In this document: piece by piece, positions 10,669 to 45,434 of the stretch | How positions within the stretch are numbered: position 1 is the stretch's first letter | Layout of the letters: every line of letters begins with the position of its first letter | DNA from: Clostridia bacterium | GTDB lineage: Bacteria > Bacillota > Clostridia > TANB77 > CAG-508 | Assembly: GCA_017533795.1 (NCBI GenBank) | Contig: JAFWIH010000020.1 | Coordinates: 9,335-73,334 of the forward strand | DNA: 64,000 bases | Direction: 5' to 3' | The notes under the pieces: generated by a model | The model's database searches: none | What the model saw: only the letters and a program-made list of their open reading frames with translations | Told to the model about the DNA's origin: nothing | Program-made: the position numbers and the translations under genes

Positions 10669-10681
10669 TTGAAATTCTCCT

Positions 10682-11884: not shown

Positions 11885-11904
11885 AATATACTATACCTTT
11901 CATT

Positions 11905-12780: not shown

Positions 12781-12798
12781 ACTATATACTCTCCTATC

Positions 12799-20964: not shown

Positions 20965-21523
20965 TTTTCTTTTTTACTCTCCTATTATATTTTTTTTCAT
21001 CTAATTGTATTCTAGCAAACAATAGTATTAAAACTACTAATGTAATTATTAAAACTACTATCTGGTTTTCTGCTGCATCCATTACATATCCTAGCCTTGG
21101 TAAAACCATTATTTCTTTCCCATCTACTTGGTCATAGGTTATTTTTTCTTTATCTTCTACATTATTATTGTCACCTTTAGTAACATAATAGCTTGTATTG
21201 TTTTCTTGATCTACCCTAATAATTCTGTGTGTAATTGATTTATTATCTCTATCAAATGTAATAACATCTCCTTCTTTCAAGTCATTCTCTTTAGGTTTTT
21301 TTGTTAAAATAGCATCTCCTTCTTTAATAGAAGGCTCCATACTATTTGTTGTAATTACATATGCCTTATATCCGAATAGACTATAATCATGTATTCTATT
21401 TAAAGAAGAAAAGAATAATAACACAATATTATATATAAGTATAATTAGTATTATATGTAATATTCTTTTGAATGTTCTTGATGTGTTTTTTCTTTTTTCT
21501 ATTGATTCTATATCATATCTCAT
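20936..21523 (-). CDS. sipW: Signal peptidase I, SipW-type (archaeal/ER-type, C-terminal TM), paralog 1.
   Basis: YVITTNSMEPSIKEGDAILTKK catalytic-Ser box. Size 195 aa. C-terminal TM IVVLIITLVVLILLFA. It lies immediately downstream of the giant secreted protein. Confidence 0.75.
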   Translation of the reverse strand: MRYDIESIEKRKNTSRTFKRILHIILIILIYNIVLLFFSSLNRIHDYSLFGYKAYVITTNSMEPSIKEGDAILTKKPKENDLKEGDVITFDRDNKSITHRIIRVDQENNTSYYVTKGDNNNVEDKEKITYDQVDGKEIMVLPRLGYVMDAAENQIVVLIITLVVLILLFARIQLDEKKYNRRVKKKNEAKEKDIL

Positions 21524-30500: not shown

Positions 30501-30706
30501 ATATAATATCCTGCTTCGTCTTGACTAATGGCCTGAACAGTTACTGTTTCCATGTCTAATAAACCACTAGAATCCATAAAATTTCCATTTATATCTAGTA
30601 GTTTTTCAGCTCTTGAACCAGTAAAAGCTCTTATTTCTATGATTATTGCTACTATTATAATAATTAAAGTTATAATTCTCTTTTTACTTACTTTCTTCAT
30701 CTGCAT
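21545..30706 (-). CDS. Giant (3053 aa) secreted surface protein. N-terminal SipW-cognate-like signal peptide, an acidic E/N/T-rich low-complexity region, then a long array of ~19-20-aa beta-helix-type repeats with consensus (V/I)(Y/F)GGGN.A.V..T.V...GG. No LPXTG, SLH or choline-binding anchor is recognisable.
   Basis: MQMKKVSKKRIITLIIIIVAIIIEIRAFTGSRAE (compare TasA GGTWAAFND). Dozens of YGGGNQA/FGGGNQA repeats at roughly aa 1480-2560 (DNA ~23000-26900, approximate). Many N-x-T/S sequons. Confidence 0.8.
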   Translation of the reverse strand: MQMKKVSKKRIITLIIIIVAIIIEIRAFTGSRAEKLLDINGNFMDSSGLLDMETVTVQAISQDEAGYYILLPDNINNKKVKKFLVEEKAINDDNVEENTLQESENKVEENIVLESENKTTEENTIIEQTPEQENIITEESSVQEPENIIIEESEEEKTTEDLSKKNKIEDIEKYNIEKIPGEKIFLTNEELEKKEINIVVEYNTKEKDNKLLYLKHLEKTEENNRVILEGYMPVDGELKVETVNKDNVGELVKNHVSKDAQIKKVYDIKIISEGKEYEPSDFGEDTEVYITNLENVDTETKKYKVVHIKEDNTTEEIKGVETKEDSIEFKTNSFSEYVIILDEKNATVSPEITAILKAPAETRELLTMENEPDVWDGSVATSFNIGSGSIADPYLINSGAELAYLASRVKNGTSFEGQYFQLTRDIDLNNRDWEPIGDATYSFAGIFNGSGRTIKNATITASGSVTMTSNTMYSFGFFGSIGTGSVYATVENVVFDNINVVFTSSGNVNRSTTNARGFNIGIVTGSMYNHSKVSNVAVKNSTIRSTGSIKVRSRTFQICVGGIAGNAQNTKTGTTDPGDGARYSIQNCYVDADINLSTITHYYSDYGDYYISYYAYYLAMVHTGGIIGSIRTQQAWPEYCLYTGNITANGLVGPIFGGRVAATANNDNNTTTYMTNYWNGNQSTNNGTVNLTMTSYYTNTRINNTLYTSTVTSGTSTSRNDTDLMGSVQGNNKGIYTNNVSSLLDGFNSRTTDNVNWKYENGSLSLIPRLTASVTETSINNYSANVSDLYNIGTYTYKWYNNGTLDEEGNTYECSPSFSTDQEVVIIASDGQYYSTLSFTVERLYIEIEFNVNNSAASVTANLVGTALPYIDMNDYTFTWYKEDISGEAEVVKEVQGSSGLTLTDLEQYYDYRLVATHSTVNELTVEDSFTFGERTVVYCDYDNGNNNRDGRSEATAVRTLATAYSKLDANGTRNKNVIVLMSDYNDSNDDTIFLNSSNNSSFARKATITGKYKDRDYDPDLCFEGYRLGYRYLNEDTTFMYLNLDGYYYSYNWRGQINGYTKSQTYFYLQGFSLTIGEDVVMKNYAKSNTNQGLLGGNAPAFHIFSCWLQYNYSNLPRNNPEVLIKSGAYARIMGGGSPGTSEGQGQTTSHDFTGTSSNPFNITITIDINNSTKSLSAETVNGNAIDYDVNLLGGGSATGNNYSNATINIKKGTIGRVLGASIGDSESIPYNWNYPCNTYLGTATVNITGGTITELYGGCLGRNMGVDSESDEGNTCDSYFYGTATINISGGEVKNNIYGAGAGGVSGYDAASSDRYRSYGQNYATSVNINISGGTIDGNIFGGGYGYTEYLNENTTAEDGGFLYGNSNIVISGSPTINGNIYGAGCGYNYSNKTSVAGMKGASYIEINGTPTISGKIFGAGAGVSGRADMAKLTGSSSIKINADLGIEVYGGGNIAKLIGNSTINIEKGTHTADIYGGGNLGIVEGAATVNIKGDSNTKVFGGGNQATVTDTIVNVIGGTNTEVYGGGNKATVETTKVTITDGTTTTIFGGGNQAEVDETEVRLNSGTVSTIYGGGNQAAADVTNVYLTGGTNATTYGGGNNAGAGETHVYCNGTTFTNIVDGVNKASVFGGSNSSGTVTTSNVEANSGMIPNIYGGNNAGGTTETSNVVINNGTITNAFGGGNKAVTTTSNVTIHGGIIDNVFGGGDQASTNTSTVITDGGIIQNIYGGGNQAGVTTTNVTTNGGNIDNVFGGSNKSGNVTTSNVTTNNSASENESTGIKMEITSTVEDAGWRKNTYPDYPTYAKFTVKITNNTSNTLEHWNGSIYVKDSMLFSNYSSTQITENNGRYTFSEVNRYYGTNQVAAGATYSFEIEILSKQSIETFTSACMLSGTDSTGSKLSYTDSKINKVYGGNNQGGTTTTANVTINGGNVVDVFGGGNQAETNATNVNVNGIVQNDVFGGGNQAGVNTNTNVNLNNAQVGHNVYGGGNQGTVTQNTYVKAKDSQINANLFAGGNGASAIVYGNTNLIMHGTSNQVTGNVFGGGNQAATGDENANNSTSTVNIVGGTIGGNVYGGANTSVIYGTANVNIGYDAVGDNSLEKGDIEIVGTVFGGGEANEAGSEIYDFEAISVTQGINILIDGNGHSKLQMTGSIFGSGNASSSAGDSLITIKNYGTYQTPQSNISIQRAKVVTIINSALSLSGTTDRTNEYSSVQFSLSRIDQLKLKNNSTLYLCNGANLLKEIDSMVDINGVETKGTVTINRETGENTKNVDNRIYMLEGKNLNVATNEKATTYGDVQGMFFLGLFSNKTNPSTSTGIYQYTNQNGDEIENEGTFILNSYVKARHMDNHDITADGFYTNTKHKENEEDNNEAGTIKVDYIDTTPPDDLYYIWTVGEAKAVTPIDLDLTASKYATLGTYELLLQGFSTPNTKFVMYGFSSGLKNGISLVDPSTIEAIELDGTKANSNFGLSIRTGNTGWAGNGSTTFIAENGASRYTGKNEYDKDNSTYTPTLNFCFYHSQNLTVQQQLGELNIMLQVLTPIDDLNDEISYIMINVNLSTALFQDDYYEGAITPGQEFELFTSTDTTITSKSAFSTYFSLFVPSAKQDITIIGNEQDPEAVTTQPSKFRDYSSFQRVIVSRNAADEPYCFPENTKLTMLDMVTNKYYYYVVTSSDVASNKYVYPLSDFTAMGSTNGEFNETEASNLYYNSEMDLIYENFIFHINFADANVGSNIEGNSVLMELRDSDNETLVGVLGIQRDVMRYNVYNNEDATIELEASLTPQTLYLGNVLNINANAKFTQTIVNSKSVYDTQYFGKKLGLKISIYDNNGNRLSSDSLFGVNFVLDGKTYYPRIDGTTRINVADKVTDVLSRIKMHTENNTTLATGDYKIKIESFGSSDGIYYGLTASDMIELDVRIINSSYGLKVTTQDQYKIVDKETGQNKFGNNYITSNIGYSSGLSNPKIAVSLYRRDYSGVYSQSYTLVDLADYVQDTLTPTSREKEYMVSENPISNMTYQFQLKNDLTSGTYKMVYKLYDGDNFVGDAYEYIVIK

Positions 30707-30738: not shown

Positions 30739-32319
30739 TTATTTTATTTTTAAAGTTTTCTTTATGTTTATTAGCTCATTAATATCTTCTATGTTTATTC
30801 CTATATTTTTTATATTTAGTCCAGTTTTTATATCTTGTAATGTTCCTATTAAATTGTCCACACTTTGAGGTGATATATCTTCTTTTTCTATTGTAAATCC
30901 AAGTAATTTATATCTGTCTTTTATTATTATTGATATATCTTTTTCCTCTAGAATTGTAATATTGTTTATAAAAGTATTATATGGGCTATTAACAAAGTCC
31001 TGCAATTCAGAAATTTTGCTGTCCATCTCTTCTTGGGTTATGTTTTTATTATTCTTTATTAAGCACTGAATCATATAATTATAATAAGAACAAGCCAAAT
31101 TTAATACTTCATATATACTTGAGTTATCATCTATAGTGTCATACATTTTTTGATAAAATTCATTAATATCTAAGTTTTTGTATTCTTCTCTAATTTCATT
31201 TATTAGGTTAGTTTGCTCTATTGTTTGTGTCTGTGGTTCTGTTTTTTTGCCAAACAATCCTTTTTTATTTGATTTACTGTTTAACTTTCTTAATTTTTTT
31301 TCTAAAGTATCTATTTTTTTTCTTGTCTCTTCATATATTTTTTTGTACTTTTCTTTTTCTTTGTATATATTCTTTATATCATTTACTATAAACTTGAATT
31401 CTAAATAACTTTTGTATTCATTTAAACTATTTAAAAATTTTCTAATATTAATATCAATGTCTGTATAATTATCTGTTTCTTCTATTATGTTTTTAGGAAA
31501 AATCTTCATACAGTTTGATTTAATCTTTTCATCTGTATAGTTTTTAATATTTAAATTTCCAGATATTAAAGCATCTATTACAGTTCTTTTATCTGTTTCA
31601 AGTATTTTATCTGCTTCTTCTTTTAATTCTAAATATTTTCTTTTTATATCTTCCGGACTTCTTTGCCATTTTTTTAAAAGTTCAAGTTTTTCTTTTTCAT
31701 AATACTTGTCTATTATTCCCTGGTTTTTTAAGTATATATATCTTAGGTTTAATTCAATATGCATTATAATATCTGAACATTTCCAATATATTTCTTCAAA
31801 TTTTGACTTTAATTCTGGAGAATTAATATCACCTTCATAGTACTCTTTTAAGAATGTTTCCATATATTCTGTAACATATATACTATAATCAAAGTCATCA
31901 ATTTTTAATTTTATTCCAACAATATCAAAATCCCTAATGCATTCTTGTATTTGCGTATTTACATTGTCCAAATTTTCTTTATAATACCTACTAAGTTTGT
32001 ATATATTTTTATCTAGTTCCATTTTCTCATAAGAATTCTTCTCATCACTTAATAAAAACAATATGTTTTTTATTGTATTTATTCTTACTTTTATATCTTC
32101 TATTTCAGTATTTTCTTCTATGCTTAATGAAGTTTGATATCTTTTACTAAGAATTTTATATATCTCATCTTTATACTTAGAAAAATCTTTTTGAACTTCA
32201 TCTATTTTTTCTATGTATTCTTTTACATTTTTAGGGTTATTTTTAGGCATAGTAGATAGTATTTCTTTATTAGCTTCTATTAAATTTTCAATTTCTTCAA
32301 GTTTATTTATTTTTTCCAT
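30739..32319 (-). CDS. Cytoplasmic coiled-coil protein of unknown function, immediately upstream of the giant-protein gene.
   Basis: 526 aa, K/E-rich heptad-like sequence, no TM segment. AAGGAAG RBS. Confidence 0.5.
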   Translation of the reverse strand: MEKINKLEEIENLIEANKEILSTMPKNNPKNVKEYIEKIDEVQKDFSKYKDEIYKILSKRYQTSLSIEENTEIEDIKVRINTIKNILFLLSDEKNSYEKMELDKNIYKLSRYYKENLDNVNTQIQECIRDFDIVGIKLKIDDFDYSIYVTEYMETFLKEYYEGDINSPELKSKFEEIYWKCSDIIMHIELNLRYIYLKNQGIIDKYYEKEKLELLKKWQRSPEDIKRKYLELKEEADKILETDKRTVIDALISGNLNIKNYTDEKIKSNCMKIFPKNIIEETDNYTDIDINIRKFLNSLNEYKSYLEFKFIVNDIKNIYKEKEKYKKIYEETRKKIDTLEKKLRKLNSKSNKKGLFGKKTEPQTQTIEQTNLINEIREEYKNLDINEFYQKMYDTIDDNSSIYEVLNLACSYYNYMIQCLIKNNKNITQEEMDSKISELQDFVNSPYNTFINNITILEEKDISIIIKDRYKLLGFTIEKEDISPQSVDNLIGTLQDIKTGLNIKNIGINIEDINELINIKKTLKIK

Positions 32320-32552: not shown

Positions 32553-32586
32553 AACATAAAAAGAGTAGGAATAAAATCCTACTCTT
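32553..32586 (-). terminator. Rho-independent terminator after the 344-aa TasA-like gene.
   Basis: Stem gagtagga/tcctactc with 6-nt loop, followed on the minus strand by TTTTTAT. Confidence 0.6.
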
Positions 32587-32620
32587 CTAATATATCATAT
32601 TCAATTAATTATTCAATTTG

Positions 32621-33655
32621 TTAAGGTTCTACTACGATTGGATCAATTGTAAATCCTAAATCAAATGTAATATCTGAACCAGATGCTGTGTTTTCACAGT
32701 CAACATCTTGACCTTCAATCCACATATAAATTCTTATTTTTGTAATACCTTCACTTAATGCCATTAACTCTGTTGTACCAATTGTTCCAGCATTAGCTTC
32801 ATCTGCTGCTAATAATAATTTATGTCCAGCTGCTGTTTTGATTGGGTTTGTAATTTGTTGGAAGTAATCTGTACTGTGGTCATTTAGAAGTACTGGTGAT
32901 GCCTTTGGAATAGGTGCTTTAACTCCATAGTATGATAATTGGTTAGCTCCTGTTAAAGCTACATTATGTCCATATATACTGCTTGCTGCGTTTGCACCAG
33001 CTTGTGTATGTACATCATAGTTTGGTTCCCAAATATATGATGTTGTTCCACCTGTTATAGCTTGAATTTGTTCAACTGTACTAGTTAATCCTGCATTACC
33101 TAATACACAGAATGCTACACGAGCTGCATTTTTTAGACCTTTGTCATTAGCTGTTCCTGCTGTTGCTTTATGTGTAACATCAGATCCTTCTGTTAAGTGA
33201 ATTGTTTTTGCTTCATCTAGTTTAAGGAATATATCAAATACTATGTATTTTCCAGATGTTGCATCATCTTCTGCTGTTGCTGATGTATATAATTCATAAT
33301 TACCTGTATCTTCGTTAGCTACAACAGTTCCAAAGTACATTCCCATTCTGTCTCCTGAAACTTCTCCTATTGTTGATACTGGAGCCATTGATGCTGGAAT
33401 AACATTTACCGCATCATCATATGTTGCTGAAGCTCCTTTAATGTCTTCATTTGAAATAACTGCTTTCCAGTTAATACCATCTACAGAAATTTGGATACCT
33501 GTAGATGCTGCTACGTTAACATCAATAGAACTAATTGTTACTGTTCTGTTAGATGTGAACCATGCATAGGTTGATGCAATTAATAAAATTGCTATTAGTA
33601 GTAACACTAAGATTGAAGATTTTACATTTGTTTTTCTTTTACTATTCTTTTTCAT
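32621..33655 (-). CDS. TasA/camelysin-family (peptidase M73-like) secreted protein with a SipW-cognate class signal peptide.
   Basis: N-terminus MKKNSKRKTNVKSSILVLLLIAILLIASTYAWFTSNRTV (compare TasA ...GGTWAAFNDIKS and camelysin ...GGTFAFFSDKE). The C-terminal motif KIRIYMWIEGQDVDC is shared with the other paralogs. Confidence 0.7.
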   Translation of the reverse strand: MKKNSKRKTNVKSSILVLLLIAILLIASTYAWFTSNRTVTISSIDVNVAASTGIQISVDGINWKAVISNEDIKGASATYDDAVNVIPASMAPVSTIGEVSGDRMGMYFGTVVANEDTGNYELYTSATAEDDATSGKYIVFDIFLKLDEAKTIHLTEGSDVTHKATAGTANDKGLKNAARVAFCVLGNAGLTSTVEQIQAITGGTTSYIWEPNYDVHTQAGANAASSIYGHNVALTGANQLSYYGVKAPIPKASPVLLNDHSTDYFQQITNPIKTAAGHKLLLAADEANAGTIGTTELMALSEGITKIRIYMWIEGQDVDCENTASGSDITFDLGFTIDPIVVEP

Positions 33656-33782: not shown

Positions 33783-34610
33783 TTATTCTCCTTCGTTTTC
33801 TTCTATATTATCTTGTTGAGTCTCTGGTTCTTCACTATTTTCTTCTTGGCTTTGTTCTTCGTTTACTTCTTCTTTCGTACCATCTTGTTTAATATGTTCT
33901 TCTACAATATCCATATGCATTTTTATTTCTCCTCCTATAAGATCATCTAAACAATCTGGGTCATCACCTTCAAGATATATTACTATTGTAAATTTGTCTA
34001 TATCTCCAGGTTGGAACTTTTGTCTACACTCAACAAGTACTTCGCTTGCTGAATAAAACTTTTCAGTTCCTTCTTCTGCTTCTCCTGTTGTTTCATTTGG
34101 CCTTGCATATGTTGTTTGTTCTCCATTTAAATATATTCTAACACGTATTGCTTTATCTACATTTTTTATTACATCATCTATGTCTATTTCGTACCAGTAG
34201 TTGACTACATCACTACCTTTGTTTTCTAAATAAAAAGTATATGCTAGATAATTGTCTCCATTATGAGCACCTTCTTGGTCAGAATCTATATTTTCAGGAA
34301 GCCATTTGTAGGAAATATTATCCATGAATTCAACTTTTGTAGCTTTCAGAATTCTTTTATCTTCTTTTTCATCTATATGTTCATACATTATTAACCCACT
34401 TTTTCTCGCGAAATTAGGATCAAGAGATACAGTAAAGTCACCTGCTTCATATACAATTCTTAATATGAAGTATATTATAATTAGAAATAAGGTTATTATC
34501 AATAGTGTTAATTTTACACTTTTGATTCTTCTATCTCTTTCTTTTATTTTTTCTGAATTAAGTTTTACCTGTTCTTTTGTTATTTCATCTTCTTTATTTT
34601 TCTTTTTCAA
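33783..34610 (-). CDS. Membrane-anchored TasA-like paralog. Basic N-terminal tail, one TM, extracellular beta-rich domain and an acidic C-terminal tail.
   Basis: TLLIITLFLIIIYFILRIVYEAGDFTVSLD. The shared family motif FTIVIYLEGDDPDCLDD is present. Confidence 0.55.
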   Translation of the reverse strand: MKKKNKEDEITKEQVKLNSEKIKERDRRIKSVKLTLLIITLFLIIIYFILRIVYEAGDFTVSLDPNFARKSGLIMYEHIDEKEDKRILKATKVEFMDNISYKWLPENIDSDQEGAHNGDNYLAYTFYLENKGSDVVNYWYEIDIDDVIKNVDKAIRVRIYLNGEQTTYARPNETTGEAEEGTEKFYSASEVLVECRQKFQPGDIDKFTIVIYLEGDDPDCLDDLIGGEIKMHMDIVEEHIKQDGTKEEVNEEQSQEENSEEPETQQDNIEENEGE

Positions 34611-34722: not shown

Positions 34723-35334
34723 ATGATTATAGTTATGGATAATAAGAAAAAATTTTTGTTATTACTAGTTTTTATTTTAATATGTGTTTTGATTTATGCA
34801 ATAATACAAATATATGCAAAGTATATTTCTTCTGCTCAAGGAAGTGCCTCTGCCAATGTTGCCAGTTGGGATATAAAGGTAAATAACTTATCTATTAAAA
34901 ACAATACTGATATTTCAAATACTTTAGCTCCCGTCTTTCCAGGAACAGAACATATTGCTAGTGGAATTATAGCTCCTACCGCAGAAGGATACTTTGATTT
35001 AAATTTTGATTTTTCTAATACTGATGTTTCATTTATGTATAATATTTCTTTATCAATAGACCCTGATAGTTCTGTCCAAGACTTAGTTGTAACTGGTTAT
35101 TCTATTGACGATGGAGAAGTAATCTCAATTGTAGATGATACACAGCCAATTTCTGATACTATATTATATGGTAGTAATGTTAATACAAGAAAAATACGTG
35201 TATATATAAAATGGGACGATGACCCTACAACATCTACAATGTCAAATGCTGATGATACATTATCTACTAAATCTGATAATCCTGCATTATATAAAGTAAA
35301 TATTTCATTTACACAAATTACAGATACAAATTAA
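34723..35334 (+). CDS. Small TasA-like secreted paralog (203 aa) with a signal anchor. The only plus-strand gene of the island.
   Basis: FLLLLVFILICVLIYAIIQIYAKYISSAQGSASANVASWDIKVNN. C-terminal family motif KIRVYIKWDDDP. Confidence 0.6.
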   Translation: MIIVMDNKKKFLLLLVFILICVLIYAIIQIYAKYISSAQGSASANVASWDIKVNNLSIKNNTDISNTLAPVFPGTEHIASGIIAPTAEGYFDLNFDFSNTDVSFMYNISLSIDPDSSVQDLVVTGYSIDDGEVISIVDDTQPISDTILYGSNVNTRKIRVYIKWDDDPTTSTMSNADDTLSTKSDNPALYKVNISFTQITDTN

Positions 35335-35366: not shown

Positions 35367-36005
35367 TTATCCGCCATTTGATTGTTCTGGTTCTCCACTA
35401 GCTTGCGTAGCTTTTAGTAGCAAATTAATTTCTATGCTGTCTTCTCCTGGATTTTCATTGTAAAAGTTATAGGCTTTTCTTCCCCATTCGGTATCTAATT
35501 CATCATTTCCAGATTCATAATCCCATTTTACTGTTATTTTAAAATAACCTGTTCCATTTTCTGCTGCTAAATCAGTCTCATCCTTTTCTATAGATATTTT
35601 AAATGGATAATTATTTGATATTATATTTTCTATATCTTCAGAATTTAGTTCTTCTGAACTTCCTTGAAGAACTTGTCCAATTTCATAATATTCATCCATA
35701 ATTTTTGCAGATCTTACATCATAGCTAAGGCTAGCCTCCATATCTCCTCTGTTGTTTACTTGTATTATTCTTTCAAAGGTTTCCATTCCAGGGAATACTC
35801 TTTCTACAGAAACAGTAACTTCTGAAGTTATTCCTCCTTGATCTGATACAAACTCAACATCCCATGAGCTAACATGAGCTGATAAGTCCATATAAACCTT
35901 TGTAGTATATATAAACCAGGCATATGCATTAAATGCAAATAAAACTATCAATACTAATATATTTCGGATTTTTATTTTTTTCATTATTTTGATAATTTTA
36001 TCCAT
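35367..36005 (-). CDS. Small TasA-like secreted paralog (212 aa) with a SipW-cognate class signal peptide.
   Basis: NILVLIVLFAFNAYAWFIYTTKV...SSWDVEF. C-terminal motif YFKITVKWDYESGND. Confidence 0.65.
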   Translation of the reverse strand: MDKIIKIMKKIKIRNILVLIVLFAFNAYAWFIYTTKVYMDLSAHVSSWDVEFVSDQGGITSEVTVSVERVFPGMETFERIIQVNNRGDMEASLSYDVRSAKIMDEYYEIGQVLQGSSEELNSEDIENIISNNYPFKISIEKDETDLAAENGTGYFKITVKWDYESGNDELDTEWGRKAYNFYNENPGEDSIEINLLLKATQASGEPEQSNGG

Positions 36006-36036: not shown

Positions 36037-36597
36037 TTATTCATCATCATTATCTTCTTTATGAGTTAAGTCATAAACAATATTTCTAATCTGTTTATAT
36101 ATTATTATTCCTATAGGTATAAATATAAAGAAATAGAATATATACATATTTTGAATTACTTTGCCAATATAACTTAAAGTTTTTATTTTACATATTACTT
36201 TACCATATATTTGATTTCCTGTAATTTGTGGATCAGCTTCAAGGTTAGCTATACCTTTTGTAATAAACTTATATGTTCCGTCTTCTTGAGATTTTTCTAT
36301 AACTTGGTGAGTAACAACTCTACCTTTAAAAGTACCTTCTTTTCCTTTATAAACAACATCGTCTCCAACATTAATCTCACTTGGACTAATTTCTTTAGCA
36401 AGTAAAACATCACTTACCAAATATTTAGGCTCCATACTTCCTGTTGCAACAATAAATATTCTGTATCCTCCTAATGAAAGAGAGTTGTCTGATACCCTTT
36501 GTAAGGCTACAACAGTTAACATTAATATAGCAATAACAAAAAGTATAGCATATAAAATATTTCCAATTATTTTTAATCCTTTATGTTCCTTTTTCAT
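36037..36597 (-). CDS. Signal peptidase I, SipW-type, paralog 2.
   Basis: IVATGSMEPKYLVSDVLLAKE. 186 aa. N-terminal TM and C-terminal TM IFYFFIFIPIGIIIY. Confidence 0.75.
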   Translation of the reverse strand: MKKEHKGLKIIGNILYAILFVIAILMLTVVALQRVSDNSLSLGGYRIFIVATGSMEPKYLVSDVLLAKEISPSEINVGDDVVYKGKEGTFKGRVVTHQVIEKSQEDGTYKFITKGIANLEADPQITGNQIYGKVICKIKTLSYIGKVIQNMYIFYFFIFIPIGIIIYKQIRNIVYDLTHKEDNDDE

Positions 36598-36599
36598 AA

Positions 36600-37733
36600 T
36601 TATTTTCCTTCCACTTTACGCGCATATATATCTATGCGACTTTTAAAGATTTTTTGTATTTCTTTAATAACTTCCATTCTTTTGTATTTAAGAACTTCAT
36701 ATCTAGTTGCAACTAGTTGTTTTATTTCTTTTTCTGACAAGTCTAGATTTAAATCAATCATTTTGTCAATCATTTTTTCTAATATTACATCTTGCATCTC
36801 TTGTCTAGATTCTTTTGTTTCAGAATCATCCTCATCCAATGTTTTCATTGTTAAGTACTGAAGCAAAAAGTTTTCATCCATGAGTTTTTTTAGATTTCCA
36901 TTATCTTCATAATTCTTTTTTTCTTCAACATTTGTTGTCTTATCTTCATAGTTATCCCTTAAATAGTCCCATAGTTTCATAGCATATTGAAAGTTTACAT
37001 TTTTTAATATAACATTTGTCTTTTTTATTGGATCTCTAACGAGTAATACTCTATCTTTTTCAAGTGTTTTATATACATCAGATGCTTCCAAACTCATAAT
37101 TTGTCTTTCTAATTCTTCAATATCATTTAAAATTTCTTGTACTTCTTCATCTACTTTATTGCCTTCATTATCAAGAGAAGAATTTAAAGATACTTTAATA
37201 TCTACCTTTTCATCTCCAATTTTTGTATTTCCCTGGTATTCAAAGTTTTTAGTATTTTTTAATTTAGAATCTGTTTTTACTTCTGAATTTCCAGTTATAG
37301 CCTCTTTCCTTTTTTTAATAAATAATTTCATGTTTTGCATTAAAGTATATACAAATCTATTTTCATAAGTACTAAAAGTTTCTTCTTTTCTAACATTTAA
37401 TAATTTTGATGGTGTAACATCACCTGTAACGTCATCTACAGTTTGAATAAGATTTGTGTTTTTTGACAAATGTTTTATAGATTCTACAGTTACTTTTTTA
37501 GTTTGCTCTATTTTCATTATCTCTTCTTCATTTATTATGAAACGATTTGGTTTTCTAAAAATGTTGTCAAGATATGGTATTGTGTCCATCATAACTTGTA
37601 TCCATTCTAAGTCTCTAGCAACAGATTTTTTATCTAGTTTTACATTAAGCTCTGTTGATGATTTCTTCATGAAGTCTCTAGCTCTTTTAGGTTCTGTTCT
37701 TTCATACAAATTAATAATTTCTAATTCTTCCAT
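36600..37733 (-). CDS. Cytoplasmic hypothetical protein with central coiled coil. Candidate partner of the McrB-like ATPase (McrC-like role unproven).
   Basis: 377 aa with no TM segment. Coiled-coil segment EEVQEILNDIEELERQIMSLEAS. Its stop is 2 nt from the sipW-2 start. Confidence 0.45.
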   Translation of the reverse strand: MEELEIINLYERTEPKRARDFMKKSSTELNVKLDKKSVARDLEWIQVMMDTIPYLDNIFRKPNRFIINEEEIMKIEQTKKVTVESIKHLSKNTNLIQTVDDVTGDVTPSKLLNVRKEETFSTYENRFVYTLMQNMKLFIKKRKEAITGNSEVKTDSKLKNTKNFEYQGNTKIGDEKVDIKVSLNSSLDNEGNKVDEEVQEILNDIEELERQIMSLEASDVYKTLEKDRVLLVRDPIKKTNVILKNVNFQYAMKLWDYLRDNYEDKTTNVEEKKNYEDNGNLKKLMDENFLLQYLTMKTLDEDDSETKESRQEMQDVILEKMIDKMIDLNLDLSEKEIKQLVATRYEVLKYKRMEVIKEIQKIFKSRIDIYARKVEGK

Positions 37734-37748
37734 TATACGACCTCTACT

Positions 37749-39275
37749 CTATGTTAATTTCTTAAGTCTTAACAAGTACTCTATACATTCTTTCATTTTG
37801 TTTTTTCCAAAAGTTTTGTCCAAAAAGCTTATATATGGATCTATTTCATCTCTAATATAAGCTATATTTAATTGTTCAAATTTTCTTAAAATCTTCTTAG
37901 CAATAAAGTAATCTACTCCGTCTACCTCATCTCCACCGCAAGCAACATATACTGGTACAAATTTTTTCATGTGTGCTACTATACGGTTACCAAAAGCTAT
38001 ACGAAAATGTTGTATAACATAGTTATCCATTTCCTCTATTTTATCGAGTGTATCTTGAGATATTGGATTTTCTTGCATTGCCGTTTTAAATAGATTATCT
38101 AAATATGAAAAATTAATATCTTGTGCTTCTGTATCAACTGGATCAAATGGAACACCCTTATCATTAATGTCTATAGGCATTGCTCTATCATAAACTTTAT
38201 CTGTAACAGCAAATGTAGAATCGTCATTGTTGATTGTTCCTATATACCACATATTTGCAGGGACTCTGATTTTTCCACCAATAATTTTTTTAGGATCTGT
38301 CTTCCAACTGTTTGGAACAAGCTCTATAATCCATTCATCTCTATTTGGCATTTCCAAAATAGAAAGCATTTCTGCAAAGTAATATTCAACACGTGACAAG
38401 TTCATCTCGTCTAGTATTACTGTATATACCTCATCAACATATCCTGCAATATACATTTCTTTAAGCATTTCAGTTTCATTAAATTTCTTAGTAAATTCGT
38501 TAAAATATCCAAACATATCTGTTCTGTCTCTCCAAGATGGCTGAACAGATGCAACACATGAATCATGCTTCATAAATTTTCCCCATGCATAGGCAAGAGA
38601 TGTTTTACCTGTACCAGAAATACCTTGAAGAATAACAAGTTTTGTTGACGCTAGCCCTGATATAAATATTCTCATCATTTCTTCTTTATAAAATAGACCT
38701 AGTTTTGATGCTGCAAAATTCCTGAAATTTTCACATAATTCTGGCAACGTAAATGAATTTCCATAATCTTGGCTTTTATAATTTTCATATTCTTCATCAA
38801 TTAATGCCAATTTTGAAAATCTTTGTCCTTGGTTTTCATCTTGTTCTTCTTGATTATTCATATTAGCTTCTTCTGTAGGAGATTCACCCGGTTTTAATCC
38901 TAATTGTGATACTTTCATTGCTAAAATTTCTTCTTTTTCTTTAACTAATTGTGCAACTTTATTATTTAATGTAGCAATCTCTTCCATAAGGTCGTCTTGT
39001 TCAACAGCTTGTTTTCTAAATTTTAAATATTTTCTTATTAGTAAATAAATTAACACAAATATTAATACTAATGTTAATATTAAACACAATATTGCTATTC
39101 CAACTAAAACCCATTCAGACATAGATAAGTCATCTTTGTATGCATCAACTACATTCTGATATGATTTTATATCTAATATTTGTTTAAATCCATTTCCAAA
39201 TCCTTTTAGAATAGTAATAATCCCTTTAAAGAATTGTCCTAGGAACTCATATAAAAATCTTGTAAATGTCTCCAT
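37749..39275 (-). CDS. Membrane-anchored McrB-family AAA+ (GTPase-like) protein. N-terminal segment, one TM, coiled coil and a McrB-like NTPase domain.
   Basis: TM VLVGIAILCLILTLVLIFVLIYLLI followed by RKYLKFRK (positive-inside). Walker A LVILQGISGTGKTSLAYA. Walker B/McrB signature VILDEMNLSRVEYYFAEML (compare McrB DEINRANLSKVFGEL). Confidence 0.65.
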   Translation of the reverse strand: METFTRFLYEFLGQFFKGIITILKGFGNGFKQILDIKSYQNVVDAYKDDLSMSEWVLVGIAILCLILTLVLIFVLIYLLIRKYLKFRKQAVEQDDLMEEIATLNNKVAQLVKEKEEILAMKVSQLGLKPGESPTEEANMNNQEEQDENQGQRFSKLALIDEEYENYKSQDYGNSFTLPELCENFRNFAASKLGLFYKEEMMRIFISGLASTKLVILQGISGTGKTSLAYAWGKFMKHDSCVASVQPSWRDRTDMFGYFNEFTKKFNETEMLKEMYIAGYVDEVYTVILDEMNLSRVEYYFAEMLSILEMPNRDEWIIELVPNSWKTDPKKIIGGKIRVPANMWYIGTINNDDSTFAVTDKVYDRAMPIDINDKGVPFDPVDTEAQDINFSYLDNLFKTAMQENPISQDTLDKIEEMDNYVIQHFRIAFGNRIVAHMKKFVPVYVACGGDEVDGVDYFIAKKILRKFEQLNIAYIRDEIDPYISFLDKTFGKNKMKECIEYLLRLKKLT

Positions 39276-39293
39276 ATGCTTTTAATACCTCTT

Positions 39294-40286
39294 TTATACT
39301 TCTATTATATTTTGTATTTTATAATTTTTTATTTTTTCATAAGAATCTAGTTGTTTATTTAAAATAACATACTTAAATATATCTAATGTTTGAATATCTT
39401 TGCTACTAATTGTTAGTGTTTTATCTAATACTACTGCAAATTTATATCCTTCTCTTAGTAAGTCATGAATTTTTTCTTTATTTTCAAGATAATCCTCATA
39501 TTGAATTTTTAATATAATCTGTTCAAGACTTGCCGGATTATTTATAATATTAAATAAGGATTTTAATTTTTTGCTTTTTTTGAATAATGTTTCACTAAAT
39601 TCTACAATATATTGTTTGTTAAATTTTTGCTTTAAGATATCTTTTAATATTAATTCTTCTGTTAAATAATACTCAACTATTAATTTATCTTCTTTTATTA
39701 TTCCTGAATTAAATGCTTTCCTTATTGCAAAATCACTATATTCAATTGGTACTTCTACATTATGTTTTAAATTAACTCTATATACATCTATTTTTCTAGG
39801 ATAATTTGTTAATTTTATATAAAAGTCTTCTGACTTCAAACTATCTATAAAACCAGCTTTTGCATTATTTGATTCTGTTATTTTTTTATATAGTGTTTCT
39901 TCAAATGTTTTAGATGTTTTATTTAACAGTTTTTTTCTTAGCTTTGAAATTCTTTCTATTTTTTGTTTTATATCTTTACATTTAACAACTTCATCGAAAT
40001 ATAAGACATACTGAAAAAAAACATTCATTTTTTGTATTAATTCTCTATCAGAGATATTATTAATAGATAATGTTTCTTCTGTGTCTTTTAGACTGCTTAG
40101 TATTTTTTTTCTAAATGTTTCATTTATGTCTGTTTGATAATAATTATAGTATCTAGCATTTATATATTTTTCTATAAATTGTTCATTGTAATCTTTATTA
40201 AACATATTTCCAAAAACAAGCTTCATATATGTGTTTATTTGTTTTTTGGTTAACTCAATATATCTGTTAATAATATTTACTGACAT
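39294..40286 (-). CDS. Cytoplasmic hypothetical protein. Possibly a degenerate EAL-like (c-di-GMP-binding) domain.
   Basis: 330 aa with no TM segment. YYQTDINETF (compare EAL YQPIV), IVEFSETLF (compare E(I/V)TE) and YKFAVVLDKTLTISS (compare ALDDFGTGYSS). The catalytic residues look degenerate. Weak call. Confidence 0.3.
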   Translation of the reverse strand: MSVNIINRYIELTKKQINTYMKLVFGNMFNKDYNEQFIEKYINARYYNYYQTDINETFRKKILSSLKDTEETLSINNISDRELIQKMNVFFQYVLYFDEVVKCKDIKQKIERISKLRKKLLNKTSKTFEETLYKKITESNNAKAGFIDSLKSEDFYIKLTNYPRKIDVYRVNLKHNVEVPIEYSDFAIRKAFNSGIIKEDKLIVEYYLTEELILKDILKQKFNKQYIVEFSETLFKKSKKLKSLFNIINNPASLEQIILKIQYEDYLENKEKIHDLLREGYKFAVVLDKTLTISSKDIQTLDIFKYVILNKQLDSYEKIKNYKIQNIIEV

Positions 40287-40324: not shown

Positions 40325-41278
40325 CTAAATACTGTTAATTGTTAAAACCATAGAATTACTACTATTTGGATAGCTATAATTATGTGTTGTATCCACTTTG
40401 TAAAATCTTAAACTTTTACTTGAAATAGCATCTACAGTTACTGTAAATTCATTTATATAAGTCTTACCTGCTATTGTTGTTGTATGTATATTGGTAGCTT
40501 CTCTATATATTTCGTTTGTCATATCTATTAATACAACATTAGGATCAAATCCTATTGTAACAATTGCAGATGAGCATTTTTCTTGATTTTCTGGTGATAA
40601 AGATAAATATGTATCTATATCTATCTTTTTATTTACTTGATAAGTTGTATCGTCTACTACAAATTGTTCTCTTACAGTATAATATGATAGTGTATTTGTA
40701 ATTCTTAAATCCATGTATGGATTATTAGCAGCATCTGTTATTTCATATGTTACATTTTCCTTACCTACTACAAGCGTAAATCTACCTTTTAATTTTTTTG
40801 TATATTCTGTTGTAGATGTTGCTTCTATTTCTACAGTTACTTTATCACCCGTATCTAATTGTGTGTTTGGGGTAATAGTAAGTGTAAAAAAGTCTGTATT
40901 TGTATTTGAATATATTGTTCCTGACTGTTTGCTTAACTGACAAATTGCATTATCAGTTGTGCAATTATATGTTATATTATAGCCTATATCATATGATGTA
41001 GCTTTTAAGTTATTTAATCTACTATTCATATTTATAATAATAGAATAGTCATCAACGCCAGACCAATTATCTATTTGGTACACAGCCGTATTTGCTTCTA
41101 ATTTATCACTATAGAAATAGAATTCCTTACTTCTTAAGAAAAAATCACTTACATTATTAGTTACATATCTTGCCAATACAACAACAAAAGATACAATAAA
41201 TAGTAATATTATTATTAAAATTAGTAGTTGCTTGTTTTTATATATAAATTGATTTTCTCTCATATCAATTCCTCTCAT
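40325..41278 (-). CDS. Secreted beta-rich protein with N-terminal signal anchor (SipW-substrate candidate).
   Basis: LLILIIILLFIVSFVVVLARYVTNNVSDFF. Rich in T/N/S/Y. Confidence 0.5.
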   Translation of the reverse strand: MRGIDMRENQFIYKNKQLLILIIILLFIVSFVVVLARYVTNNVSDFFLRSKEFYFYSDKLEANTAVYQIDNWSGVDDYSIIINMNSRLNNLKATSYDIGYNITYNCTTDNAICQLSKQSGTIYSNTNTDFFTLTITPNTQLDTGDKVTVEIEATSTTEYTKKLKGRFTLVVGKENVTYEITDAANNPYMDLRITNTLSYYTVREQFVVDDTTYQVNKKIDIDTYLSLSPENQEKCSSAIVTIGFDPNVVLIDMTNEIYREATNIHTTTIAGKTYINEFTVTVDAISSKSLRFYKVDTTHNYSYPNSSNSMVLTINSI

Positions 41279-41282
41279 AATT

Positions 41283-41879
41283 TTAAGTTGTTGTATATTG
41301 TCTTGATTCTACTTTTATTTCTATAGCCTCTATTATATCTTGATAGTTTTCTGTATTATAATTTGGTGGAAAATATACCACTAGTTGATATGTATTTGTT
41401 TTAGGTTCTCTATATAATAGTTCCTCTGTTTCAGTAGTCATAGTTCTAAAATATGTTTCATCTTCATCTTGCAATATTTCATTTGTTTTTGTTATATCTA
41501 CAGCATTATTGTCTGTATAGTTTTGATTCTTATATAAATAATATGTTAATGGTAAATTCGTTGTAGTTCTAATTGTTAAATCGTATGTTAAATCAATTTC
41601 AGCGCTTTGGCTTCCATCTTGGTTTCCTATTGTAAAAGTATATACATATACATTATTTTGTGGTAATATTGTTCCTAAATTGAGCGTCATAGTTTGATAA
41701 TCTTCTTTGAATAAATAAAATGCTATATCAATTTCAGCATCTGTAGAAGTCTCACTTTCATATTTTGCAAGAATAAGAGAAAAAATTCTTAAGATAATCA
41801 TACAGCACATAATTAATATTATTAACTTTGCATATAAAGTTTTTGTTCTATTATTCATCCAATTTTTCATCCTTTGCAT
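41283..41879 (-). CDS. Secreted protein with N-terminal signal anchor (SipW-substrate candidate).
   Basis: LIILIMCCMIILRIFSLILAKYESETSTDAEI. The start overlaps the sipW-3 stop by 1 nt. Confidence 0.5.
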   Translation of the reverse strand: MQRMKNWMNNRTKTLYAKLIILIMCCMIILRIFSLILAKYESETSTDAEIDIAFYLFKEDYQTMTLNLGTILPQNNVYVYTFTIGNQDGSQSAEIDLTYDLTIRTTTNLPLTYYLYKNQNYTDNNAVDITKTNEILQDEDETYFRTMTTETEELLYREPKTNTYQLVVYFPPNYNTENYQDIIEAIEIKVESRQYTTT

Positions 41880-42413: not shown

Positions 42414-43053
42414 TTAAGGATTTTCTACATTTTCTACATATTCAGAAATTGTTTCACCTAAATATTGTGAAACATGAACAGTAATAGGAATATGTAGCTT
42501 AGGATTGCTAGTTGCTCCTATAGAAATATCTTGAGTTGAGTCTAATTCATTATCAACCCATTGTATGCTTATTTTTATGTTATTAGTTATTCCATTTTTG
42601 ATTTTATTTAATGGAATTATTGCAGTATAAGTATTTTCTCCAGTTTTAGTTAATGTGTTATTATCAATTGTTTCAACAATATTATTTATTTGTATATTTT
42701 CATTTGTCATATTTTCTGTATTTAAGCTTATATCATACCTAACTGCTACATCTGTATCAGTAGGATTTATAGCAATTTCAAAATCCCCTGAAAGTCCGCG
42801 GTGCTATATTTCCTTCTTTAACATGCGAACTTCCATCAATATTAATTTGGTCTACTGTAAAGCTGGTTTCTATTCCCCTCGAAATTTCTGTGCCATTTAT
42901 ATAAATGTTCCATTTTCCTTTTTCAAATCGAGCATTTCCATTCATTTCACTATAAAACACAGCATAAATGTGTATTATTTCGTAAATTAAAAATCCAATA
43001 ATAATACACATACATACCAAAATTAATGTTTTAATATTTTTTTTGTTTTTCAT
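42414..43053 (-). pseudogene. TasA-like paralog split by a frameshift near 42780-42800. The two halves are ORFs 42778..43053 and 42414..42710.
   Basis: The upstream half ends ...GNIAPRTFRGF*. In the -1 frame it continues ...HRGLSGDFEIAINPTDTDVAVRYDISL...KISIQWVDNELD. These align to one intact paralog (34723): GIIAPTAEGYFDLNFDFSNTDVSFMYNISL...KIRVYIKWDDDP. An unusual GC-rich ccgcgg lies at the junction. Confidence 0.6.
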
Positions 43054-43062
43054 TAATTACCT

Positions 43063-43575
43063 CTAATTATTCTTTGACTCTCTAATCTCTGTTACAACTA
43101 CAGTAATTTGATAGATGAAAGCTAATAATGAAGGCATTACAATTAAGAATAAGAATCCCCATTTAGATTCTAGTACAGATAAAATTCCTCCAACTGTTGG
43201 TATAACTTTAGCGCCATCTACTGTACCTATAACATATTGACTTGATTTTTTTAAACTTCCTTCAAATGTATATGTTGTTTCTGTTTCTGTAACTTTTTCC
43301 ATTGCTTCTACAGTACCTAATTTCACATCAATTTGTGTATCTCCCTTTTCATAAAAGAAAGCTTTTCTTCCAGTTCTAGCTTTTACACTTTTATCAACTA
43401 TTACTAAATCTCCCTTTTTAAATCTTGGTTCTAATGAATTGTCAGTAATAAGTAATAGAGAATTGTTACCAAATTCTGTAACCTTATAATCATTGTATGA
43501 TAATAGGCACACCGTTACAAATATAGCTATAACAGCATATACAATAAATAAAATGTTTGAAATTGCTTTTTTCAT
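43063..43575 (-). CDS. Signal peptidase I, SipW-type, paralog 4, first gene of the long minus-strand operon.
   Basis: LITDNSLEPRFKKGDLVIVDK. 170 aa. N-terminal TM and C-terminal TM FLFLIVMPSLLAFIYQITVVV. Confidence 0.65.
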   Translation of the reverse strand: MKKAISNILFIVYAVIAIFVTVCLLSYNDYKVTEFGNNSLLLITDNSLEPRFKKGDLVIVDKSVKARTGRKAFFYEKGDTQIDVKLGTVEAMEKVTETETTYTFEGSLKKSSQYVIGTVDGAKVIPTVGGILSVLESKWGFLFLIVMPSLLAFIYQITVVVTEIRESKNN

Positions 43576-43598: not shown

Positions 43599-43683
43599 TT
43601 TTTTTTTCTTTTTGTATTTTTACTATTCATTTTTTACTATAACATAACAGATTTTTTTTTTCAACTTTTTTTTTCATTTTTTT
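43599..43683. promoter_or_regulatory. Divergent promoter region containing four homopolymeric T/A tracts (T9, T10, T9, T7). Candidate slipped-strand phase-variation site upstream of the SipW operon.
   Basis: T9 at 43599-43607, T10 at 43652-43661, T9 at 43666-43674, T7 at 43677-43683. Confidence 0.35.
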
Positions 43684-43735: not shown

Positions 43736-43762
43736 AATTTTGAGTTATTGTGGAGGGTACAA

Positions 43763-44683
43763 ATGATTAATTATTCGGATAAGGATAACATAGATAAGCT
43801 AATACTGCTCGAAAAGAATTCTTTACAGGCAACTATCGATATTCAAAAAACGCTAAATAAGCAGATATTAGTTTTTATGAAAAATTTTATAGGTAATATA
43901 GAAATAAGCGCTGATAATGATGGTGAAAATAGTGCATACATGTATTTAAGCAAATCAACCACTGTATTAAACAAATCAAATACTAATATTTCTAATATTG
44001 GAAAATTATTAGAGTTATTAGATAATTTACAAGAAGCAACAGAAACCCTACCTCAATCAAAGCTAATTTCTAAAATAGAAGCTTATAACAAAAAATTCTC
44101 CACAACTATTGATTCAACATATAAAAATACTAAAAAAATTGAAGAATTCATTCACGAAACTTCAATGCTTGATTTATCAACATTTTTAAAAGAAAACTCA
44201 AAGCCTGAAAAAAGTGTAAAAAAAGAAAATGAAGAACAAACTAATACCATTACTAGTACAGATTTGGAATCTGGATTTATAGAAAAAACACTTATTATTT
44301 CAGACATACAAAAAAAAGTTATTTTACCTTATAAATTAGACAAAATTGAAGATATATTACTTGCTAATAGTGCAAAATACAAGTCTTTACAAGATGTTAT
44401 AGATAAACTATATACAAGGCCAATTAAATACTATAAAGCCCCTGCAATAGCAAGATTCAAGGAATCCTATAGATTAATGAGAAAAAAAGAACACAGTTCT
44501 ATACTTAAGGCACTATCTCTTGCTTCAGAATTGTTTATGAATTATAATTTACATCCAGCAATAATTACTGCATGTAAAAATATAGATCAATTAGATATAT
44601 ATTTAGCTTGTTTAGAAGATGATACCTTAGATGAATTTAAATTTTTTGATATCAAATATGAAGTTGCTCCTAAATTAACATAG
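43763..44683 (+). CDS. Hypothetical cytoplasmic protein, divergent from the SipW island.
   Basis: The ORF track begins at TTG 43748. ATG 43763 is preferred because GGAGGG lies 7 nt upstream. No recognisable domain. Confidence 0.5.
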   Translation: MINYSDKDNIDKLILLEKNSLQATIDIQKTLNKQILVFMKNFIGNIEISADNDGENSAYMYLSKSTTVLNKSNTNISNIGKLLELLDNLQEATETLPQSKLISKIEAYNKKFSTTIDSTYKNTKKIEEFIHETSMLDLSTFLKENSKPEKSVKKENEEQTNTITSTDLESGFIEKTLIISDIQKKVILPYKLDKIEDILLANSAKYKSLQDVIDKLYTRPIKYYKAPAIARFKESYRLMRKKEHSSILKALSLASELFMNYNLHPAIITACKNIDQLDIYLACLEDDTLDEFKFFDIKYEVAPKLT

Positions 44684-44693
44684 GAGCAACTTT

Positions 44694-45434
44694 TTATTTA
44701 CAAAATCTGTGTTTTCCTATTGTTACAGTCATTGGCCTTGACCATATCCATTTATTTGTTGCGGTGCTAGGATTAAAATAATATATTGCACCATATGAAG
44801 GATCCCAGCCATTCATTGCATCTTGTGCAGCTTTTTTTGATGCACTATCCGGATTTAAATTTATTTGTCCATCTGATACCGCATCAAAAGCCCCCTTTTG
44901 ATAAATCACTCCAGCAATTGTGTTGGGAAACGAACTACTTTTTACTCTGTTTAAAATTACAGCTCCGACTGCCACTTGTCCAGTGTATGGTTCTCCTCTA
45001 GACTCGCCATATATTAAATGGCTTAGTAAATTTATATCTGATGAATTTGTACTAGAACTTCCACTATTTGATCCACTTGATGTTATTCCCATAGCTGCTA
45101 AAGTTTTTGGCCCTGCAATGCCGTCTACAGTTAATCCATTTTTTTGTTGAAATTTTTTTACAGCCGAAACAGTTTGTGTTCCATAAATTCCATCTACACT
45201 TCCATTATAATATCCCCATCTTTTTAATTTTTCTTGTATTTTACTTACTTCTGTTCCCCTTGAACCATATTTTGAAAGTGCTTCTACTTTGCTTATTTTA
45301 AAAAATATAATTGAAATAGTCATTATAGTAATAATTAGTATTATCATTTTTATTAGTCTTTTTCTTTTATTAAACATATAACCACCTTTAGATAATTTTT
45401 TATATTTTATCCAAAAGTGGTTATTTTTATACAA
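44694..45434 (-). CDS. sleB: SleB/CwlJ-family cell-wall hydrolase (spore-cortex-lytic enzyme-like) with signal anchor and one peptidoglycan-binding repeat.
   Basis: PG_binding_1-like GSRGTEVSKIQEKLKRWGYYNGSVDGIYGTQTVSAVKKFQQKNGLTVDGIAGPKT. Hydrolase_2-like YGESRGEPYTGQVAVGAVILNRV...AFDAVSDG. Confidence 0.65.
   Translation of the reverse strand: MYKNNHFWIKYKKLSKGGYMFNKRKRLIKMIILIITIMTISIIFFKISKVEALSKYGSRGTEVSKIQEKLKRWGYYNGSVDGIYGTQTVSAVKKFQQKNGLTVDGIAGPKTLAAMGITSSGSNSGSSSTNSSDINLLSHLIYGESRGEPYTGQVAVGAVILNRVKSSSFPNTIAGVIYQKGAFDAVSDGQINLNPDSASKKAAQDAMNGWDPSYGAIYYFNPSTATNKWIWSRPMTVTIGKHRFCK

Follow-up and report, generated by a model that had tools for sequence, protein, structure and literature searches.

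One branch of the McrB GTPases carries a signature that is strictly NxD, in most cases with D or E as the next residue (Bell et al. 2024, eLife, PMC11090510). The same study describes the CoCoNuT systems (types I-III), which possess long cytoplasmic coiled coils, no transmembrane (TM) helix and always a HEPN or another nuclease. It also names a class called CoCoPALM in three sentences, without listing components or proposing a mechanism, and defers it to a later paper: in CoCoPALM, an FtsB-like domain with a TM helix and a coiled coil is joined to the GTPase, and genes of the signal peptidase family are associated with it. A follow-up study on CoCoPALM was not found in a literature search. Dedicated SipW-type signal peptidases encoded together with their substrates are found in the SipW-TasA/TapA system of Bacillus subtilis and the SipW-BsaA system of Clostridium perfringens. 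In the model for TasA and BsaA, cleavage precedes or accompanies donor-strand polymerisation and frees the N-terminus, and no NTPase gene is listed in the tasA and bsa operons as described there (PMC11580942). The subject of the present analysis is a stretch of 64,000 nucleotides from a Clostridia bacterium (contig JAFWIH010000020.1), hereafter termed the window, which contains three adjacent genes for proteins of 330, 508 and 377 amino acids, termed X330, B508 and C377. They are embedded in a cluster of SipW-like peptidase and signal-anchored protein genes and probably encode a dedicated NTPase module of a SipW-dependent surface-fibre apparatus.

The module matches the already named, essentially uncharacterised CoCoPALM class: the GTPase is of the NxD type and carries an N-terminal TM helix and a coiled coil, the partner is a McrC homologue with a coiled coil, and signal peptidase genes are associated with both. 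The coiled coil of C377 (residues 181-223) is clear, whereas B508 has only a short zipper recognised by eye. As to the FtsB-like anchor, the TM helix of B508 is clear and conserved, but matches to FtsL are weak and there is none to FtsB. An initial annotation of the window had suggested a new use of the McrB fold; this is supported here, although it had already been flagged with the naming of CoCoPALM. The CoCoPALM passage of PMC11090510 contains no EAL-like subunit, no peptidase fusions, no inactive peptidase paralogues and no ABC-linked class with four to five TM helices, all of which are described below. EAL is absent from the main text and two supplements of that paper, and CoCoPALM is absent from those supplements; neither the EAL-like third subunit nor the peptidase fusions seem to have been reported before.

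With McrBC of Escherichia coli (6ut6, 7vsr, 6hz4), the module shares the AAA+ core motifs and an adjacent partner with a DUF2357 domain. It differs from McrBC in that a membrane anchor replaces the DNA-binding N-terminal domain, the signature is shortened to NxD, no McrC nuclease is detected and the genes lie in a secretion/fibre operon rather than in a restriction locus. CoCoNuT systems have in common with the module the NxD branch, coiled coils and a McrC that often lacks an active nuclease; unlike them, the module has a TM helix with a short zipper, and no nuclease was detected. Special N-terminal signals, with an aromatic residue after the alanine of the predicted cleavage site, are shared with the SipW substrates of the TasA and BsaA systems. 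The tasA and bsa operons differ from the cluster, which has five peptidase paralogues and whose subunits are without detectable TasA/camelysin similarity.

Judged by its motifs and profile matches, B508 belongs to the NxD branch of McrB-type AAA+ NTPases. The Walker A motif GISGTGKT is located at residues 218-225, and the segment VILDEMNLSRVEYYFAEML at residues 286-304 is highly conserved in 150 representatives of 50%-identity sequence clusters. When B508 was aligned with these representatives, Walker A and Walker B (VILDE, 286-290) were kept in at least 145 of the 151 sequences, and an extended block, LDEMN[LI][AS]R[IV]EYYFA, was nearly invariant. The signature reads N349-N-D351-D352; N and D are each present in 144 of the ungapped sequences, and the residue following NxD is D in 107 and E in 32 aligned sequences. 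R364 is invariant and aligns with the arginine cluster of E. coli McrB. All significant PDB matches of B508 are to E. coli McrB (6ut6, 7vsr and 6hz4, E 6.5e-5 to 2e-4) and span residues 148-366, and AAA_5 is matched by 28 of 31 B508 relatives. The resemblance to McrB read from the Walker B/signature segment by the initial annotation was thereby borne out. An assignment to the MoxR clade, considered as an objection, was rejected because the significant PDB matches are to McrB only. The NCBIfam McrB model gives E 3e-5 and 22.9 bits; since its equivalog cut-off is 637, B508 is no McrB equivalog.

B508 consists of an N-terminal amphipathic segment, a TM helix at about 55-80, a leucine zipper at about 95-125 and the NTPase domain at about 190-500. 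The TM helix is the single strong hydrophobic segment of the protein (Kyte-Doolittle 19-residue maximum 3.4), and its C-terminal flank reads RKYLKFRK, with five K/R in the 20 residues after the helix versus two in the 20 before it. Because of this positive flank, the NTPase domain is predicted to be cytoplasmic according to the positive-inside rule. The anchor is conserved, with one to two TM helices in the closest cluster representatives, and the topology proposed by the initial annotation withstood the objection that the TM prediction might fail. The coiled coil that it had assigned to B508 is short: a zipper of about 30 residues was read by eye but fell below a crude 28-residue heptad score. 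Judging from the sequence, the anchor and the short zipper stand in place of the McrB DNA-binding N-domain, and no DNA-binding family was found in the N-terminal part of B508 by Pfam/NCBIfam-type profile scans. FtsL models match residues 57-134 weakly (E 0.0086 and 0.088), and a gene for a SleB-like hydrolase lies nearby (Table 1), both of which would suit a cell-division or sporulation factor whose linkage to fibres is secondary. However, the FtsL matches are below the cut-offs and were not reproduced in Pfam across the 31 relatives, which gave no DivIC/FtsB match either. SleB neighbours occur in 4 and holA in 2 of 82 sources searched, whereas SipW and pilin-like genes are near-universal, and a primary role in division or sporulation is most improbable.

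The second subunit, C377, carries DUF2357 (PF09823), the N-terminal domain of McrC, at residues 24-162 (E 8.1e-15, 55.2 bits versus a cut-off of 23.3). DUF2357 was also matched in the distant McrC-like homologues of two further loci, L076 and L077. C377 has no TM helix, a clear heptad coiled coil at residues 181-223 and a helical tail. No nuclease family was found in C377 in Pfam, NCBIfam or PADLOC. In an alignment of 37 sequences of the C377 family, W44, E118, Y123-E124-N125, P235, T239-N240 and W255 are invariant, and a PD-(D/E)xK pattern is absent among the invariant residues. Because DUF2357 is present and neither a nuclease family nor this pattern was found, C377 is, on sequence grounds, a nuclease-less McrC homologue with a coiled coil in the place of the nuclease. 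The family profile had no match in the PDB, and hhalign of the family against the single E. coli McrC sequence found nothing. The initial annotation had described C377 as a cytoplasmic coiled-coil protein but did not recognise it as a McrC homologue; its reservation that the protein might be a canonical McrC nuclease fails, as C377 is McrC-related and no nuclease was detected.

A rival reading takes nucleic acid at the membrane, rather than protein assembly, as the target of the module; examples would be RNA surveillance, localisation of the mRNAs of the secreted subunits, or DNA uptake or export via the fibre. McrB is ancestrally DNA-translocating, and RNA targeting has been predicted for the sister clade CoCoNuT (Bell et al., PMC11090510). 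However, scans of B508, C377 and X330 detected no domain that binds nucleic acid, the TM helix takes the place of the DNA-binding N-domain, no nuclease or helicase was found in the cluster, and the fusions described below are to a peptidase. An activity on nucleic acid is hardly to be expected.

X330, which is identical in sequence to the hypothetical protein IKF17_04955 of a metagenome-assembled genome (MAG) labelled 'Clostridia bacterium', lacks a TM helix and is predicted to be cytoplasmic. No sequence family was matched in Pfam, PADLOC or NCBIfam. AlphaFold2 (AF2) with a 46-sequence alignment yielded a model with a pLDDT score (predicted local distance difference test) of 80 and a predicted template modelling (pTM) score of 0.80; the single-sequence model (pLDDT 50) was unusable. 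The model comprises a helical bundle (residues 1-150), a disordered linker (158-197) and an alpha/beta domain (about 200-330), which corresponds at the fold level only to the (beta/alpha)-barrel of EAL domains. Only part of the barrel is present: about 150 of the roughly 240 EAL residues are aligned. When the X family was compared with three E. coli EAL sequences (PdeH, PdeL, RflP) by hhalign, the probability was 0.1, and the EAL-likeness therefore comes from the fold. The EAL-like domain that the initial annotation had suspected could thus be recovered in the fold, but not at the sequence level. A search of the X family profile against PDB sequences matched only dynein, which was dismissed as a chance match.

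The candidate catalytic and ligand positions of EAL domains (the Glu of EAL, N, ExxE, DD, K and E) vary freely among 58 X homologues, in which conservation of at least 85% is limited to a few aromatic residues. An active cyclic di-GMP (c-di-GMP) phosphodiesterase was rejected because the catalytic positions are not conserved. According to the model, X330 is a truncated, non-catalytic EAL-like fold whose binding of c-di-GMP is doubtful; it might therefore be a pure protein-binding adaptor resembling YdiV, and such an adaptor is more probable than a c-di-GMP enzyme. Compared with the degenerate EAL proteins LapD, FimX and YdiV/RflP, X330 is without GGDEF or HAMP, and its barrel is truncated. In one locus (L001, 8955-9982), from an assembly whose 508-aa protein is identical to B508, gene calling splits X into two open reading frames (ORFs; 117 and 181 aa), which suggests a frameshift or an assembly error.

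The genes for X330, B508 and C377 are co-directional and separated by 18 nt (X330-B508) and 15 nt (B508-C377), in agreement with the tight spacing stated in the initial annotation; a SipW-like gene follows C377 after 2 nt. To compare this arrangement across genomes, 80 loci were collected, one genome per species, in which the GTPase is 51-82% identical to B508, and neighbour families were assigned by iterative profile searches on the ORFs of these loci. Almost all of the loci stem from MAGs labelled as gut or rumen Bacillota, with a few other bin labels, e.g., Muribaculaceae. Of 75 evaluable loci, 74 have a McrC-like gene directly downstream of the GTPase, and X lies directly upstream of the GTPase in 55 of 71. 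SipW-like genes come directly after the McrC-like gene in 59 of the 73 loci evaluable for this, are found directly upstream of the GTPase in 14 of 71 and occur within 5 kb of it in 77 of 80. In two of the three remaining loci, the contig is short (3.8 and 7.9 kb); the third has a GTPase gene that begins about 200 nt from the end of its contig, and a SipW-like gene further downstream. Pilin-like genes are present within 6 kb in 75 of the 80 loci. Nearly all X-B gaps measure -14 to +17 nt, and most C-SipW gaps are around -4 to +12 nt. The commonest gene order is p317-X-B-C-SipW-pilin; a Ruminococcus/Acutalibacteraceae group has the order p275-pilin-SipW-B-C without X, and the McrC-like protein of this group is about 700-820 aa long in most loci and contains a charged coiled coil of about 400 aa.

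The strongest argument for a single complex of GTPase module and peptidase comes from gene fusions. In 13 loci, SipW and X are fused to a protein of 633-756 aa, which consists of TM1, the catalytic domain, TM2, an acidic linker and X as the C-terminal half. Since X follows TM2 of a complete SipW in these fusions, it would be cytoplasmic and tethered to the peptidase. In L076, a 998-aa ORF (9828-12824) runs from DUF2357 through a charged coiled coil (about 400 aa) into a complete SipW-like peptidase; as this is a single case, it might be an assembly error. With SipW-like genes this close and fusions in 14 loci, the preference of the initial annotation for a SipW-linked membrane NTPase was upheld.

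The alternative it had weighed, an anti-phage or restriction module of the CoCoNuT or McrBC type that inserted into the fibre island and acts independently, is very unlikely. Restriction is the classical role of McrBC, B508 matches the PADLOC candidate-defence model PDC-M26A with E 8e-32, and TM-less relatives of 700-870 aa, a length that would suit CoCoNuT-type architectures, are found among the 150 nearest cluster representatives. However, the PADLOC match is limited to the NTPase domain (residues 191-315), and scans of C377, X330 and ten neighbours gave neither a nuclease (PD-(D/E)xK, HEPN or other) nor a defence family. The fixed position in the gene order across 80 genomes, the tight or overlapping junctions and the SipW fusions also speak against independent insertion. 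The cluster is flanked by housekeeping genes (holA, a gene for a SleB-like hydrolase, uppP, a PNP-family gene and glycosyltransferase genes), and the window ORFs scanned yielded no integrase, nuclease or defence family. Viral contigs contain only three relatives, which are distant (29-34% identity). A prophage or mobile origin was rejected on account of the housekeeping flanks and the near lack of relatives on viral contigs; a PHROGs search returned nothing useful. The fixed order beside SipW and pilin-like genes and the peptidase fusions argue for a role in surface fibres rather than in phage defence.

By analogy with the McrBC structures, B508 would form a hexameric ring that is tethered to the membrane by six TM-zipper stalks, and the N-domain of C377 would plug this ring and stimulate GTP hydrolysis (6ut6, 6hz4). 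X330, as a non-catalytic adaptor, and the coiled coil of C377 could link the ring to the cytoplasmic C-terminus of SipW. GTP turnover would then either work on the membrane-anchored subunits or time or gate the cleavage by SipW. Such a machine would resemble the hexameric ATPase and prepilin peptidase of type IV pili in function only, as the two are not homologous. If the module serves the fibre apparatus, a mechanical motor is conceivable and a nucleotide-dependent switch or checkpoint slightly easier to envisage, the two versions being about equally likely. The proposal of the initial annotation that the NTPase energises or gates the process is thus inferred. The full picture is put forward tentatively and may well prove wrong: a new Gram-positive pilus or fibre machine in which a membrane-embedded, McrBC-derived hexameric GTPase, a nuclease-less McrC and an EAL-like adaptor to SipW provide energy or timing for the cleavage-coupled polymerisation of a new subunit family, widespread in gut and rumen Bacillota.

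Several points weigh against a fibre-dedicated NTPase module. All support comes from sequence, fold prediction and comparative genomics, and the 80 genome loci are the closest relatives and hence a biased sample. The hexamer, the stimulation by C377 and the contact with SipW are carried over from analogous systems, and the neighbouring proteins are regarded as fibre subunits from their signal anchors and SipW adjacency only. Foldseek ranks EAL domains first for X330 without reaching significance (E 0.16 or worse), and an EAL signal is absent at the sequence level, with no Pfam and no PDB profile match. The FtsB/FtsL homology of the B508 anchor is weak (E 0.009-0.09, below the cut-offs). Finally, the C-terminal half of C377 may possibly hide a cryptic or inactivated nuclease-like fold.

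The cluster extends on the - strand from about 43575 down to 20443, with the gene for p203 as the single + strand gene inside (Table 1), in a DNA stretch of low GC content (about 27%). No terminator-like site was found on the - strand between 43575 and 35367, and the setting among signal peptidases and anchored proteins noted by the initial annotation holds. A promoter-like site (43636-43664, - strand) is located 5' of the first cluster gene; because the promoter scan was not enriched over shuffles, it is uninformative save for this site.

Table 1. Features of the cluster and its surroundings (positions in the window)
Feature	Position	Strand	Basis
SleB-like cortex hydrolase gene	44694-45434		
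SipW-like paralogue, 170 aa, first cluster gene	43063-43575	-	Peptidase_S24 match; alignment
SipW-like paralogue, 168 aa	41879-42385	-	full Ser/His/GDAN motifs; Peptidase_S24/S26 matches
p198, pilin-like, anchor ends in AKY	41283-41879	-	synteny, anchor scan
p317, N-terminal signal anchor, directly upstream of X	40325-41278	-	synteny p317-X-B-C
X330 (330 aa)	39294-40286	-	ORF list
B508 (508 aa)	37749-39275	-	ORF list
C377 (377 aa)	36600-37733	-	ORF list
SipW/archaeal-type signal peptidase I, 186 aa, 2 TM	36037-36597	-	TIGR02228, SipW model
p212, pilin-like, anchor ends in YAWF, after SipW in most loci	35367-36005	-	synteny
p203, pilin-like, anchor ends in YAKY	34723-35334	+	opposite orientation conserved
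p275, N-terminal signal anchor, conserved in cluster	33783-34610	-	synteny, anchor scan
p344, candidate major fibre subunit, anchor ends in STYAWF	32621-33655	-	anchor, terminator
p526, cytoplasmic, several heptad segments	30739-32319	-	found in 25 related loci
Giant 3053-aa protein, GGxNxA-type repeats, N-terminal signal anchor	21545-30706	-	homologues in 28 loci
SipW-like paralogue, full Ser/His/GDAN motifs	20936-21523	-	alignment
SipW-like paralogue, Ser motif deleted, no His	20443-20964	-	alignment

Five SipW-like genes are present in the cluster. The product of the gene that follows C377 matches TIGR02228 (E 2.8e-21, 76 bits versus a cut-off of 51.85) and the SipW model (E 3e-15) and has the Ser and His motifs (TGSME, THQV). 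In the 170-aa paralogue encoded by the first gene, no His is found anywhere and the GDAN motif is missing. This paralogue and the one encoded at the other end of the cluster are probably catalytically inactive, judging from the loss of the catalytic His in the former and of the Ser motif and His in the latter. They recall inactive signal-peptidase-like pilus chaperones such as streptococcal SipA/LepA. The 168-aa paralogue is without the C-terminal TM helix seen in its relatives, and its stop codon and the start of the following gene overlap, which may reflect a frameshift or a true truncation.

The genes between those for the peptidases include at least eight that encode proteins with an N-terminal signal anchor. 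Across homologues, these anchors end in YAWF or in YAKY/ARY, a sequence feature that recalls the SipW-dependent signal of TasA. The N-terminal TM helix of p317 is present in 52 of 54 homologues, and the AWF motif is found in 48 of the 50 p212 homologues that have a TM helix and in 64 of 70 homologues of p344. The latter protein matches TIGR04088, the model of SipW-cognate signals, weakly (E 0.009, below cut-off) and has more than 2000 homologues, all of them unannotated ('hypothetical'). A homologue of one candidate subunit was seen on at least 1000 contigs. A terminator-like hairpin (32559-32588, - strand) directly 3' of the p344 gene fits p344 as a highly expressed major subunit, with read-through into the genes for the coiled-coil and giant proteins. 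No link to TasA/camelysin was found for the p344 family (PDB, Pfam) or for the other cluster subunits. The giant protein, which has no Pfam match, is a candidate adhesin or fibre component.

Two ORFs on the - strand, one of 91 aa with a pilin-like anchor (42778-43053) and one of 98 aa (42414-42710), resemble a split pilin-like gene; related loci have a single gene of 200-220 aa between the first two SipW genes at this place. Next to the cluster, a divergent gene (43748-44683, +) encodes a 311-aa protein with no family match, which adjoins the cluster in 11 of 82 sources searched and may be a regulator or an accessory factor.

B508 belongs to a large family. At least 8000 homologous 90%-identity clusters were found, and 8356 representatives of 50%-identity clusters match with E <=1e-3. 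With increasing distance, the nearest relatives with one to two TM helices are followed by a class with four to five TM helices and by a TM-less class of 700-870 aa, whose about 400-500 residues before the NTPase domain give it a length that fits CoCoNuT-type architectures. The class with four to five TM helices was sampled with 80 metagenome loci (L089-L168). A SipW-like gene occurs in 54 of 83 loci analysed, namely these 80 and the three distant viral loci, which are without SipW. The neighbourhood is conserved in this class as well (e.g., L106, 4891-17005): it encodes a pair of 1-TM proteins (about 230 aa), a SipW-like protein with three TM helices, the GTPase, a McrC-like protein, an ABC ATPase with an ABC-2 permease, a protein of 810 aa and a surface protein with Flg_new repeats.

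McrBC is a textbook restriction enzyme, and in the locus described here its GTPase-activator pair has apparently been rebuilt, without the nuclease, as a membrane machine on a signal peptidase. The association of the GTPase with peptidases is in itself no surprise to the specialist; the system is abundant and entirely unannotated. The SipW-X fusions provide a concrete and testable wiring diagram. If the proposed role is true, the module would be the first NTP-dependent component for the assembly of SipW/TasA-type fibres and would give the NxD branch of McrB its first function outside conflict systems. The family abounds in human-gut and rumen metagenomes, and the module probably makes a surface structure that is common among uncultured gut Firmicutes and wholly unannotated.

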